Notes under the pieces: generated by a model
What the model was told of the DNA's origin: nothing
Database searches by the model: none
Seen by the model: the letters and a program-made list of their open reading frames with translations, nothing else
Shown here: positions 1,855 through 42,855 of the stretch, piece by piece
Layout: every line of letters begins with the position of its first letter
How positions within the stretch are numbered: position 1 is the first letter of the stretch
Origin: an uncultured Eubacteriales bacterium
Lineage (GTDB): Bacteria; Acidobacteriota; Aminicenantia; Aminicenantales; Aminicenantaceae
DNA length: 64,000 nt
Reading direction: 5' to 3'
Assembly: GCA_964406575.1 (NCBI GenBank)
Contig: CAYOSH010000004.1
Location: 68,189 to 132,188 of the forward strand
Made by a program: the position numbers and the translations under genes

Positions 1855-2175
1855 GTGGAAGAATTACTGGGGAGAACAATAAAACTCACAGGGCTCGTCA
1901 GTTATCAGAAAGGTTCTGTGATCAGCCGAGAGATTATTGCAAAAAAAACTGGAACCGTGACACTTTTTGCTTTCGATGAGGGCCAAGGCCTATCCGAACA
2001 TACAGCTCCATTTGACGCAACTGTCCTCTGCTTGGAAGGAGAGGTCGATGTCACCATATCCGGGAGATCGATTCGCGTTAGAAAAGATGAAATGATCATC
2101 ATGCCTGCTCATCAACCGCATTCCCTCAAAGCCAGATCGAAATTTAAGATGCTGCTCATCATGATCAGGGCTTAA
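1855..2175 (+). CDS. Cupin-domain protein (cupin_2-like)
   Basis: GTG start 8 nt after an AGGAGGAAAG RBS. A small beta-barrel sequence with the characteristic late-strand motif ([11 protein letters not shown]). Confidence 0.65.
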
Positions 2176-2230
2176 TCCAAGCTCTTCATTAAAAAGCTTA
2201 ACAACATTCAAATCAAAAAGGAACGTCCTA

Positions 2231-4324
2231 TTGAGTAAAAACCGCTTGATTCACGAGAAGAGCCCTTATTTGCTCCAGCATGCCTCGAACCCTGTGGATT
2301 GGTATCCCTGGGGAGAAGAAGCTTTTAAGAGAGCGGAAAAGGAGGATCGCCCCATCTTTCTCTCGATAGGATACTCCACGTGTCATTGGTGTCATGTTAT
2401 GGAAAAGGAATCTTTCGAGGATGGAGAGGTGTCTAAGCTGATGAACAAATTCTTCGTCTCTATCAAAGTAGACCGTGAAGAACGACCGGACATCGACAAC
2501 GTGTACATGAAAATTTGCCAGATGATCACAGGCAGAGGGGGATGGCCTTTGACCATCATTATGACACCTGATAAAAAGCCTTTTTTTGCAGGCACATATC
2601 TGCCCAAACAGAGCCGGTTCAACCAAGTCGGGATGATGGATCTTGTTCCGCGTATCGGAGAGCTATGGGCCAAACAGAGGCGTGATTTGCTGGCATCAGC
2701 GGAAAAGGTCACTCTTGCACTCAGCCAGCAATCTTTTACCTCCAGCGGACACAACCTGGATGAGTCGACCTTGAATTTAGCCTTTCAACATTTGGTTCAA
2801 AGCTTCGACGCCCATTATGGGGGATTCAGTCAAGCTCCCAAATTTCCCACACCCCACAACATCGCATTCTTGCTCCGCTTCTGGAAGCGCACCGGGAATG
2901 AGTCCGCACTTCATATGGTTGAGAAAACCCTCCAGGCCATGAGGTGGGGAGGGATTTTTGACCACCTCGGTTACGGATTTCACCGATACTCGACGGATGC
3001 ACGATGGCTCCTCCCCCACTTTGAAAAGATGCTTTACGATCAAGCACTCTTGGCAATGGCCTACACCGAAACATACCAAGCGACACAAAAGGATCTTTAT
3101 AAGGAAACATCCGAAGAGATCCTCACCTATGTCCTGAGCGACATGAAATCTCCGGAAGGCGCTTTCTACTCTGCTGAAGATGCTGATAGTGAAGGTCAAG
3201 AGGGGAAATTTTACACGTGGCAATGGAGAGAACTGCAGAGATATCTCACTAAAGAGCAATTCAAGTGCGCAGCCACCGTGTTCAACCTTCGAGAGGATGG
3301 GAATTTTTCCGAAGAAGTGACCGGTAAAAAGACCGGAGTGAATATTCTCCATATGACGAGCTCAATGGCAGACTCAGCGGAAAAACTGAAGATGAGCGTA
3401 AAAGATTTACAGACCGGATTGGAGGACATCAGGAAAACATTGTTGGAACAGAGAGAAAAGCGGGAACGTCCCCTCAGAGACGATAAAATACTGACAGACT
3501 GGAACGGCCTGATGATCGCGGCTCTTGCTTCGGCGGCGCAGGCCTTCGGCGCCCAGAAATACACAGAGGCTGCAGAAAAGGCTTCCGATTTTGTATTCCG
3601 TCATCTCAGACAAAAAGATGGCTGCCTCTTGCATCGATACAGGAAGGGAGAATCGGGGATCAGCGCTTATGCCGATGATTATGCGTTTATGATCTCTGGA
3701 CAGATCGAACTCTACAGAGCATCATTCGATGAGAAACACTTGAAGAGAGCACTGGATCTGAACGATTATTTTACCAGACATTTTTGGGACGAAAAAAAGG
3801 GGGCTTTTTTCTTCACTCCTGACACCAGCGACACTCTTTTTATCCGGCAGAAAGAGAGCACAGACGGGGCGATCCCTTCGAGCAACTCTGTGGCTATGAT
3901 GAACTTGCTTCGTCTCAGCAGGATGACAGGGCGCTTAGAATTTGAGGACAAAGCGGCTCGAATATCCGATTGTATTTCAGGGAATGTCTCGTTGCATCCA
4001 TCGGCATACACCCAGATGCTGTGTGCGATCGATTTTGCTCTCGGACCGTCTCATGAAATCGTCATCGCCGGACAACCAGGAGCTGAAGATACTCAACGAT
4101 TGATCAGGACACTCCGGGAGAAATTCATCCCCAATGCGGTCACTCTCTTTGTGCCAGCGGATAGGGATAATCCAGAGATTTACAGGCTGGCTCCCTTCGC
4201 ATCGCAACACCCTCGCGCCAAGGAAAAAGCCACAGCTTATGTCTGTTCTCACTTCACCTGCAAGCAGTCCACATCTGACCCTGCTCTTATGCTTGAATAC
4301 TTAGGCTTCAAATCCAAGATCTGA
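2231..4324 (+). CDS. yyaL: Thioredoxin-domain protein YyaL (DUF255 N-terminus plus six-hairpin glycosidase-like C-domain)
   Basis: N-terminus [22 protein letters not shown]...[23 protein letters not shown] has the YyaL/SSP411 signature with a CxxC motif. Length 697 aa. Confidence 0.85.
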
Positions 4325-4496
4325 GTTTCATGATGGAAACACGATCAGGCTATTGCCATATCAAGAGTCCCCGCTGAATCGCTCACAAAGATTCGGAGAG
4401 GCTTAAGAGAGGAATAAATGTATTCCATTATCACTGATGGAGTGCTAAAATGCATTTTCACGATTTTGGAGAGGCTTTCGATAGACCAACATAATA

Positions 4497-5279
4497 ATGA
4501 CGCCCCATAAACCCCTGATACTCCTGACTAACGATGACGGCTTCTTTTCCGAAGGATTGGAGAGCCTTGCAGCGTCTCTGCAAGACCTGGCTCAGACTTT
4601 TATTGTTGCTCCCGACAGAGAGAGGAGTGCCACCTCGCTTGCGCTGAGCCTCCACCGGCCATTAAGAATAAAAAAAATTCGAAAGAATATTTACGCTATA
4701 GATGGAACGCCAGCAGATTGTGTGTACATGGCTGTCCAAAAATTGCTGCCGTACAAACCTGATCTGCTGATCTCCGGTCCCAATCCCGGCCCAAACCTCG
4801 GGCAACAAGATACTTCCTATTCAGGAACGGTTGCTGGAGCACTCCAGGGAACTTTTTTACAGATCCCCAGTGTAGCCATCTCATTCCTCCATGATGCAGA
4901 GAGAAATTTTCACACCCAACACGCAGTCAAAGTCTCCCTGGTTTTGGTCAAAAGAATCCTCCAAAACCCTCCCGAGGACGGCATTACACTAAACATCAAC
5001 ATTCCCCCTCCTCCTATCAAGGGAATCAAGGTCGTCAAGCTCGGACAGAAGAGATACAACCCCGAAATCATCGAAAAAAAGGATCCGAGAAATCGCACCT
5101 ACTACTGGATAGGAACAGGACAGCCCAAAGCCATCGGAGATCAGGATAGTGATGTCATGGTTATCAAAAAAGGTTATGTCACCATAACTCCACTTCACAA
5201 AGATATGACAGATTACTCGACAATCGAGAAAAAAGACTTCCAGGATATTTATGATTCAATACAAGATGAAATTTCTTAG
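4497..5279 (+). CDS. surE: 5'/3'-nucleotidase SurE
   Basis: ILLTNDDGFFSEGLESL...IVAPDRERSATSLALSLHRPLR...IDGTPADCV are canonical SurE motifs. Confidence 0.9.
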   Translation: MTPHKPLILLTNDDGFFSEGLESLAASLQDLAQTFIVAPDRERSATSLALSLHRPLRIKKIRKNIYAIDGTPADCVYMAVQKLLPYKPDLLISGPNPGPNLGQQDTSYSGTVAGALQGTFLQIPSVAISFLHDAERNFHTQHAVKVSLVLVKRILQNPPEDGITLNINIPPPPIKGIKVVKLGQKRYNPEIIEKKDPRNRTYYWIGTGQPKAIGDQDSDVMVIKKGYVTITPLHKDMTDYSTIEKKDFQDIYDSIQDEIS

Positions 5280-10405: not shown

Positions 10406-10497
10406 CGCGTTTGCCGATCTTTGATTTTGAAAGGAGAAGTTGAACTGGATTATTCACGCATCGAGTTTGCCGTAGAGCTGAGGCGCAAAGGATGCAG

Positions 10498-26065: not shown

Positions 26066-26135
26066 GTTAAGATTTCTAAATCCATGATCGTATGAACACA
26101 AGTTGGTTATTGAGTGTCCCGATTGGGTGGTGGAG
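26066..26135 (-). repeat. Intergenic repeat, type 1 (copy C, reverse orientation, with AACTTGTGTT insertion)
   Basis: Reverse complement CCACCACCCAATCGGGACACTCAATAACCAACTTGTGTTCATACGATCATGGATTTAGAAATC. Nearly colinear with copy D. Confidence 0.65.
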
Positions 26136-26293
26136 AAAAACGTGAGCGAGTCTGGCTCGGACGTCATTCATCACCGATTAGAAATGCTAACCATGCATGA
26201 TGAAATTTTGATATTTTTGCAACTTAAAATATGGTATAAGGTTTTTAAATGGGTACGATTTCAGGTTTGGTTGCGATAGGGAGATTGTGAAAA

Positions 26294-30046: not shown

Positions 30047-30060
30047 AATAATGAACGCGA

Positions 30061-30125
30061 TTTCGAAATCACCAATTGGGACACTCGGATCTCACTTATC
30101 ACGGATTTAAGCATGCATCACATTC
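30061..30125 (+). repeat. Intergenic repeat, type 1 (copy A). Core AATCACCAATTGGGACACTCGGATCTCA...ATCACGGATTTAAGCATG.
   Basis: About 75% identical to copy B (42801-42855). Related to reverse copies at 26066-26135 and 56327-56400. Lies between the GH88/105 stop and the phosphohexomutase operon start. Confidence 0.7.
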
Positions 30126-41096: not shown

Positions 41097-41140
41097 TGTA
41101 AAAATGGAGATTGTTTCATTTTATGCAAAAACCGTGTCCT

Positions 41141-41205
41141 GATCGGTCTGTTCGGGGAACGGACCCTACACATAAAACTTATTTAGGGAATAGTCCCTAC
41201 ACAGA
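41141..41205 (+). repeat. Intergenic hairpin repeat, type 2 (copy F)
   Basis: GGTCTGTTC-GGG-GAACGGACC hairpin (9 bp with one G-U), followed by CCTACACA and a second GTCCCTACACAG. Confidence 0.7.
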
Positions 41206-41298
41206 AAATGAGGTCTGACATTTCATTTCCTTTCCGTTAGACGGCGTCACACCCATAAAGTATAATACAGGTGATCCCAGGCGTATCACGGAGGAAAG

Positions 41299-42723: not shown

Positions 42724-42770
42724 CAGTCCCCCAATAGGTCGATGTAGGATCAGTTCCCCGAACTGACTGA
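42724..42770 (-). repeat. Intergenic hairpin repeat, type 2 (copy G, reverse orientation)
   Basis: Reverse complement TCAGTCAGTTCGGGGAACTGATCCTACATCGACCTATTGGGGGAC. About 90% identical to copy E. Lies directly adjacent to type-1 copy B. Confidence 0.7.
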
Positions 42771-42800
42771 AAGAGTAAGAATCGTTCCCCTGTTGTCTGA

Positions 42801-42855
42801 TTTCACAATCACCAATTGAGACACACAGACACTATTCATCACAGATTTAAGGATG
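42801..42855 (+). repeat. Intergenic repeat, type 1 (copy B)
   Basis: TTTCACAATCACCAATTGAGACACACAGACACTATTCATCACAGATTTAAGGATG, aligned by eye to copy A. Confidence 0.7.

Follow-up and report, generated by a model that had tools for sequence, protein, structure and literature searches.

The 64,000-nt stretch analysed here (the 64-kb window) belongs to the genome of an uncultured Aminicenantes bacterium, and homologues of its M28 gene are labelled Candidatus Aminicenantes. Three copies of a hairpin of the form GTTCGGGGAAC-N-GA-N-CCTACA are found in it, at 41150-41170 on the plus strand, 42743-42763 on the minus strand and 61046-61066 on the plus strand. An earlier note made from the letters alone had placed three hairpin copies there, and the sequences are present: a search with the pattern GTTCGGGGAACNGANCCTACA, allowing up to two mismatches, returned exactly these three matches in the window and none in 100 dinucleotide-preserving shuffles of it. 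The first copy (c1) lies between an amidohydrolase gene and the M28 gene, the second (c2) begins 32 nt past the M28 stop codon, and the third (c3) is located 58 nt past the stop of an ORF at 61124-61522 on the minus strand. Read on the opposite strand, each copy has a GTAG head that is unpaired and, behind it, a 9-bp stem closed by a 3-nt CCC loop, the general form being TGTAGG(G) + NNN + GTTC + CCC + GAAC + NNN + CC; all three copies begin with TGTAGG(G/A). Elsewhere in the window, Rfam at the gathering threshold recognized only a tRNA gene (1743-1816), which has 72% G+C compared with 47% for the window, and the segment 45659-46251 (L001 14361-14953) carries a gene for a VapB antitoxin and, after it, an ORF of 121 aa that corresponds to a PIN-like one in the syntenic locus L133. 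Judged by sequence, the two genes appear to form a toxin-antitoxin pair conserved in L133.

A covariance model was built from 68 distinct family units and run unfiltered over the window, where it found four real units (c1, c2, c3 and 61104-61130), all other scores having E >= 0.4. Unit c1 (41145-41170, minus strand; model match 41144-41170) reads TGTAGGG TCC GTTC CCC GAAC AGA CC; behind its GTAG head, the 9-bp stem contains one C.A mismatch (T.G on the plus strand), and the unit differs by one mismatch from family unit B (45 bits, E 1.7e-9). Unit c2 (42743-42768, plus strand; model match 42743-42769), TGTAGGA TCA GTTC CCC GAAC TGA CT, scores 38.4 bits (E 8e-8). Unit c3 (61041-61066, minus strand; model match 61040-61066), TGTAGGG TCA GTTC CCC GAAC TGA CC, has a perfect 9-bp stem, no mismatch to the family unit and a score of 44.9 bits, and folds as a DNA hairpin of -8.5 kcal/mol (z -4.6). 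The hairpin energies of the window copies as DNA range from -4.2 to -8.5 kcal/mol, and c2 and c3 are 90% identical over 48 nt. A 27-nt GTAG-strand sequence of the family is TGTAGGGTCCGTTCCCCGAACGGACCG.

Several units had been missed in the earlier note. The fourth model match, at 61104-61130 on the plus strand (TGTAGGTACCGTTTCCCAAACTATTCC), is a remnant of an A-type unit with four mismatches to unit A (32.1 bits, E 3.3e-6); its GTAG head faces that of c3 at a distance of 37 nt, and its 3' arm has been lost into the stop codon of ORF 61124-61522. Next to c1, at 41123-41149 on the plus strand, lies a decayed A-type partner (ATGCAAAAACCGTGTCCTGATCGGTCT versus ATGTAGGGACCGTTTCCCAAACGGTCC, 18/27 in a by-eye count against the canonical doublet). 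The span 41141-41205, which had been cited for the first copy, also includes a mini or degenerate unit at 41186-41201 on the minus strand (TGTAGGGACTATTCCC), composed of a GTAG head and a short GGGA/TCCC hairpin, with a weak model score (E 1.9). This mini-hairpin variant, TGTAGGGA-N3/4-TCC(C/G), has a GTAG head that contributes its G's to a stem of 4 bp; it occurs twice in the window, at 41186-41201 and at 54248-54262, and the mini motif GGGAATAGTCCCTACA was also seen after a unit in L096 (~5970), from a Syntrophaceae MAG. About 6 kb beyond the window end, the same genome contains three more units (L134 380-500), including an intact doublet at L134 454-500.

The family is far from limited to three copies. 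An exact-pattern scan of one genome per species gave at least 115 loci, most of those listed lying in MAGs labelled Aminicenantes, and five related MAGs of Aminicenantes type carry at least 33, 26, 16, 11 and 10 exact copies. Many family matches lie near contig ends. The units are extragenic: 197 of 209 (94%) fall outside ORFs of at least 150 aa, though such ORFs cover 83% of the bases. Gaps that hold a unit lie between tandem genes in 47 cases, divergent genes in 19 and convergent genes in 10, compared with 168, 50 and 39 among all gaps, and by this comparison a preference for gene 3' ends is absent. In the relatives the dominant form is a 47-nt doublet, TGTAGGGACCGTTTCCCAAACGGTCCGTTCGGGGAACGGACCCTACA, of which 49 copies were counted; it consists of TGTAGGGACCGTTTCCCAAACGGTCC|GTTCGGGGAACGGACCCTACA, with unit A forward, unit B reverse-complemented, the 5 nt GGTCC common to both and the GTAG heads pointing outward. 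The doublet folds as one long DNA hairpin (-16.8 kcal/mol, z -4.4) and presumably replicates as a unit. Inverted units that form a single long hairpin, as in REPINs, are a feature of the relatives and are present intact once in the same genome (L134 454-500); the window retains decayed doublets only. At the sequence level, the window elements agree with the definition of GTAG-tagged repetitive extragenic palindromes (REPs; PMC3733652, PMC3116915 and PMC3337134 as reference).

Other arrangements were also observed. Direct head-to-tail REP arrays with a period of 28-30 nt were seen at L020 4165-4285 and L098 760-860 and also in L012, L034, L049 and L069; arrays of this type with a 30-nt period are present in a Desulfobacteraceae MAG, and at one contig end, GTTCGGGGAACGGACCCTACAGCTCGGTCC is repeated four times in a row. 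Interspersed with the main type is a further one (GGTCAGCTCGGGGAGCTGACCCTACA) whose apex is GCTC/GAGC, and this apex also occurs in the window's own genome (L134 454-480). Two MAGs labelled 'uncultured Eubacteriales' (CAZXJE and CAZIMJ; L007, L009, L011 and others) carry REP copies of the Aminicenantes type. In CAZXJE the doublet is present too, and 75-77% nucleotide identity with the window extends over 3.7 kb (L071 250-5104 versus window 12191-16864); the label of these two MAGs is probably wrong.

Two further repeats accompany the REPs. The first is a dispersed repeat of about 100 nt with the core CCATGCCCGTCCAGCCCTTCTCACGGTTTTCTCCACCACACAATTGGGACAC...ATCACGGATTTGGAAATGC, which in relatives often lies directly downstream of a REP doublet. 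It was seen in the window at 56327-56441, 26074-26168, 30058-30116, 42799-42855 and 10438-10497, and elsewhere for instance at L027 2286-2388; within the window it adjoins c2 and takes up entire gaps where genes converge. It was considered as a structured RNA, a reading that was rejected when the consensus fold on one strand proved essentially empty. The other, an inverted repeat GGGGACAGGCTA...TAGCCTGTCCCC with runs of A and T on its flanks, is found in relatives, often just after a REP doublet (L009 3707-3755, L015 369-417, L041 2488-2536, L052 166-214, L087 4169-4217, L102 2121-2169 and L104 5067-5115), and is not in the 64-kb window. Its arm fits the GGGGWSAS motif in the TIRs of acidobacterial TIR-associated tyrosine transposases (PMC3733652).

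The GTAG tag and the stem were analyzed across the wider family. When units were anchored by the apex only, 236 of 253 carried GTAG at -9..-6, on one side only and with no complementary 3' tag; about half of these 253 units come from loci fetched with a pattern that required CCTACA. A metagenome scan that made no use of the tag found CTAC in six of the seven distinct units beside a RAYT gene (REP-associated tyrosine transposase; see below). With the apex fixed and the base left free, the basal stem triplets were nearly always paired, as TCC/GGA (88), ACC/GGT (61), TCA/TGA (8), TCT/AGA (6), CTC/GAG (4), CCT/AGG (3) and TGC/GCA (2), and the apex pair was GTTC/GAAC in 139 units, GTTT/AAAC in 69 and mixed in one. 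At least eight different paired stem variants occur. Among the 68 distinct sequences 93.6% of cells are paired, and four stem pairs have changes on both sides. Double-change cells number 66 against 19 expected, a count that overstates the events, as copies of one master sequence are not independent; the observed score was reached by none of 500 shuffles, and the signal is gone when the partner column is slid by one to three positions.

This wider covariation bears out the structural constraint for which the earlier note had argued, beyond the single position that it had used as its example. The bases cited there are correct, 61045/61057 being A/T and 41149/41161 being T/G, and the description of a compensatory change between the first and third copies holds for c3, where A-T is a true double change from the family-majority C-G, and fails for c1, which carries only a single change. 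Similarly, the stem said to be preserved at this pair is, in c1, a T.G wobble when read on the plus strand and a mismatch (C.A) on the strand with the GTAG, which is not full compensation. As c1 departs from the majority by one change that leaves a wobble or a mismatch, the comparison of this pair alone is weak evidence.

The history of two of the copies was followed by aligning the window with three syntenic loci (L131, L132 and L133; M28 identity 76-82%). In two of these loci, L132 and L133, a 4-nt overlap joins the genes for M28 and DUF4412. In the window they are separated by a 199-nt spacer, lacking in these relatives, that is made up of c2 and the ~100-nt dispersed repeat, and in L131 the spacer consists of the ~100-nt repeat and a REP stump only. 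By this alignment the spacer downstream of M28 is a filled site, empty in L132 and L133, and not a conserved regulatory element; c2 belongs to an insertion that is specific to the lineage and lies between two genes that converge. In the amidohydrolase/M28 spacer, a doublet lies at the same place in all four lineages and its state of decay differs in each. These doublets range from nearly intact in L132 downwards, with model scores falling from 42.6 to 15.6 bits, and c1 is what survives of the B half in the window, where the A half matches at 18/27. From the orthologous spacers, and in particular the near-intact doublet of L132, c1 and its partner at 41123-41149 read as the remains of the 47-nt inverted doublet, c1 being the surviving half of an old and decaying one. 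The window copies are relics of REP insertion events, and c3 together with the facing remnant is a GTAG-inside dimer.

A doublet that has stayed in place upstream of M28 in four lineages could have some use to the host. A conserved promoter-like site, TAGACG-17-TATAAT (41238-41266), lies downstream of c1, and on its other side the divergent gene has a promoter-like site of its own; c1, between the two divergent sites, is probably not in either transcript.

The earlier note had offered a terminator or attenuator and a small structured RNA as possibilities beside a REP-like element. That the hairpins are mainly RNA elements, namely terminators, attenuators or 3'-end stabilizers selected for their effect on neighbouring genes, is an explanation that we consider improbable. 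The positions of c2 and c3 just past stop codons, where both would be transcribed into stable hairpins, speak for it, as do the G.U-compatible pairs present in the family and the RNA side roles described for REPs in general (PMC3733652). However, no T-run follows any of the three hairpins on either strand and a terminator scan picked none of them, c1 lies between divergent promoter-like sites and upstream of TAGACG-17-TATAAT, the gaps that hold a REP show no preference for gene 3' ends, and the orientation of the units relative to transcription is inconsistent. Moreover, no Rfam family matched the three copy regions even at E<=1, apart from a chance lncRNA match (E 0.26), which leaves the small structured RNA unsupported as well, and contexts of 90-115 nt, folded on both strands, gave RNA z values of only -0.8 to -1.5 and no larger structure. 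The reading also leaves the one-sided GTAG head and the association with RAYT genes unexplained. The elements might nonetheless have secondary effects on the host through neighbouring transcripts, for example if c2 or c3 forms a hairpin at the 3' end of an mRNA.

The RAYT association was found outside the window. Locus L003 encodes, at 4172-4662, a 160-aa protein with a match to the Pfam family Y1_Tnp (4e-11); among proteins of solved structure its best relative is E. coli TnpArep (4ER8, 4e-8), IS200/IS605 transposases following at ~0.05, and its homologues bear source names such as 'REP element-mobilizing transposase RayT' and 'REP-associated tyrosine transposase'. REP arrays lie on both sides of this gene and include an exact B unit. 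Eleven further RAYT loci show the same REP architecture adjoining the gene. In L118, L120 and L121, which were fetched by protein identity, units of the form GTAGGG-NNN-GTTC-CCC-GAAC-NNN-CC lie within 200 nt of the RAYT gene, and a metagenome scan for a REP within 100 nt of a RAYT C-terminus (L122-L130) gave such units at eight of nine loci. Several RAYT loci carry the identical B unit, and the unit of the window family is identical over 26 nt to RAYT-flanking units. The contigs that combine RAYT and REP are of Desulfobacterota type, with flanking units that are identical or near-identical to the family. Together with the GTAG head, the extragenic location at high copy number and the inverted doublets, the RAYT genes flanked by the same units support the REP-like option.

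Two side observations concern the RAYT genes themselves. A conserved order of nitroreductase, RAYT, small ORF and MaoC dehydratase genes is present on three different metagenome contigs (L118, L120 and L121, ~2000-4500), and this synteny is consistent with a resident single-copy gene in that RAYT subclade rather than a hopping element. Furthermore, a subclade of 169-aa RAYTs contains a REP-like sequence, GGTGCGTTCGGGGAGCGCACCCTACAG, that is in frame and translates as GAFGERTLQ, at a spot where nothing but ...K-TLQ (CCCTACAG) stands in the RAYTs of 160 aa; the insert is found in L118 (3256-3290, within the RAYT gene 3001-3510), L119 and L120, and in some 20 proteins besides P0043 and P0069. The RAYTs of L122, L127 and L130 have a different insert, RSSPNGPNE, likewise in frame but elsewhere in the gene. 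RAYT genes themselves thus hold their own target-like hairpin.

No RAYT or other Y1 transposase gene was found in the 64-kb window, in the ~6 kb beyond one end or in roughly 530 kb of Aminicenantes-type loci; the other contig reached from the window ends begins within the window itself. A phmmer search of the window and loci with the L003 RAYT and with E. coli YafM, the latter serving only as a probe, matched only L003, and protein-database searches for RAYT homologues gave no match labelled Aminicenantes. The labels among the homologues were Deltaproteobacteria, Smithella, Omnitrophota, Thermodesulfobacteriota and Brocadiaceae, and many of the matches came from contigs of 1-2 kb. REP-like repeats without RAYT mobilization, that is, repeats moved by another enzyme such as the TIR-associated Y1 transposases or left as an orphan and immobile population, would agree with this negative result, and with the TIRYT genes reported for Acidobacteria that are flanked by TIRs with the GGGGWSAS motif (Di Nocera et al., PMC3733652) and inverted repeats GGGGACAG...CTGTCCCC that adjoin REPs in the relatives. 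We nevertheless regard this as very improbable: over 26 nt the unit does not differ from those beside bona fide RAYT genes, and amplification seems to have been recent, given that a MAG holds dozens of copies without any difference between them. As the repeat-flanked RAYTs tend to sit on short, unbinned contigs and the genome scan, with at least 115 loci, is a lower bound, the absence of RAYT from Aminicenantes MAG fragments is weak evidence.

It is hardly credible that the palindrome GGTCNGTTC-GGG-GAACNGACC is the operator of a dimeric DNA-binding regulator of adjacent genes: a near-perfect 21-bp palindrome, the place of c1 in a divergent promoter region and the persistence of a doublet there in four lineages would suit one, but the copies have unrelated genes as neighbours, lie in gaps of every orientation class, convergent ones included, number tens per genome across several phylum labels, show compensatory stem changes instead of symmetric half-site conservation and, at the orthologous site upstream of M28, decay differently in each lineage. 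Among other candidates, a CRISPR array or remnant was rejected, the window copies being 1.6 and 18 kb apart and in both orientations and the L020 array having a 30-nt period without spacers; an integron attC was rejected because GTT and AAC lie at the apex and not at the outer ends, and ECF-sigma -35 elements (GGAAC) and preQ1-like aptamers were discarded on anatomy.

We conclude that the hairpins of the window are, with high probability, GTAG-tagged REPs of an ordinary kind: short, parasitic and non-autonomous DNA elements, presumably spread by a RAYT, that then decayed. In the proposed mechanism, head and hairpin would be bound as single-stranded DNA by the RAYT (TnpArep), a HUH/Y1 tyrosine transposase usually encoded once per genome, which would cut and rejoin the strand and so disperse the units into intergenic DNA, mostly as inverted doublets (REPINs). 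The covariation of the stem would follow from the need of the enzyme for a hairpin, and unselected copies would subsequently decay. E. coli TnpArep neither binds nor cleaves without the GTAG 5' of the hairpin, and its cut falls at a CT dinucleotide (PMC3479197); REPtrons, the GTAG REP superfamily and the types of dimer within it have been described (PMC3733652). By analogy with these systems, a RAYT would mobilize the REPs in this Aminicenantes lineage. The window itself holds only three to four units, one of them with a stem mismatch and one truncated, which counts against the reading, and any activity in this genome is putative.

Several of these properties are shared with the GTAG REPs and BIMEs of Enterobacteria and their TnpArep (RayT/YafM; PDB 4ER8), namely a short imperfect hairpin that carries GTAG 5' at its foot and on one side only, the extragenic location at tens or more copies per genome and, as in a REPtron, the inverted and alternating unit types around a Y1/HUH transposase gene, as at L003. 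In contrast to the enterobacterial elements, the head here is extended to GTAGGG, with the last two G's paired in the stem, the loop is fixed as CCC, and within the doublet there is no spacer but an overlap of 5 nt (GGTCC) between the units; no sequence relation exists to the Y and Z REPs of E. coli, the host is an Aminicenantes bacterium, and the cognate RAYT was not found in the Aminicenantes-type DNA searched. As in the REPINs of Pseudomonas fluorescens SBW25 (Bertels and Rainey 2011, PMC3116915), two inverted REPs make up one long hairpin, the doublet is the predominant and best conserved form, singlets look like decayed doublets, and the associated RAYT is single-copy, here with the nitroreductase-RAYT-MaoC synteny; unlike those REPINs, no spacer lies between the REPs, and direct tandem arrays with a 28-30 nt period (L020, L098) are found as well. 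The subterminal hairpins of IS200/IS605 elements (IS608, ISDra2) likewise combine a hairpin and a guide tetranucleotide on single-stranded DNA with a Y1 HUH transposase (PMC3479197), whereas the present units are not the two ends of a transposase-carrying element and are dispersed alone or as doublets. Intrinsic (Rho-independent) terminators resemble them as G+C-rich intergenic hairpins that sometimes lie just past a stop codon, and differ in that the units here have no T-run, carry an unpaired GTAG tag, also occur in divergent gaps and are near-identical in sequence at many loci.

The family is previously undescribed, and a search of the Di Nocera 2013 supplements for its consensus gave no match. 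As the 2013 survey lists GTAG REPs in Proteobacteria, Cyanobacteria, Chloroflexi and the PVC group (PMC3733652), the host class Aminicenantes is new for these elements. The 26-nt unit was found under the labels Aminicenantes, Desulfobacterota, Syntrophaceae, Nitrospinota and Bacillota, a distribution of MAG labels and bins that is not reliable enough to build on. The same REP unit, abundant in Aminicenantes MAGs and flanking RAYT genes in Desulfobacterota-type contigs, with no RAYT found in the Aminicenantes DNA searched, might indicate a transfer of REP and RAYT across phyla, or a large REPIN population that Aminicenantes keep without a cognate RAYT, by means of a non-cognate enzyme; we think either of these rather unlikely, if worth bearing in mind. 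REPIN-RAYT systems are described as mostly vertically inherited (RAREFAN), which differs from a 26-nt unit under several phylum labels.

For genome annotation, these findings imply that the hairpins are best masked as REPs, and that terminator, riboswitch or small-RNA calls on them should be avoided; the REPs also account for contig breaks in Aminicenantes MAGs. The empty, filled and decaying sites around a single gene provide a comparative series for dating REP dynamics. If a REP unit is truly common to several phylum labels, it would bear on the horizontal movement of REP-RAYT systems, and a transfer across phyla, if real, would contradict the view that REPIN-RAYT systems are inherited strictly vertically. 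With this family, an uncultured acidobacterial class joins the hosts of GTAG-type REPs and REPIN-like doublets.
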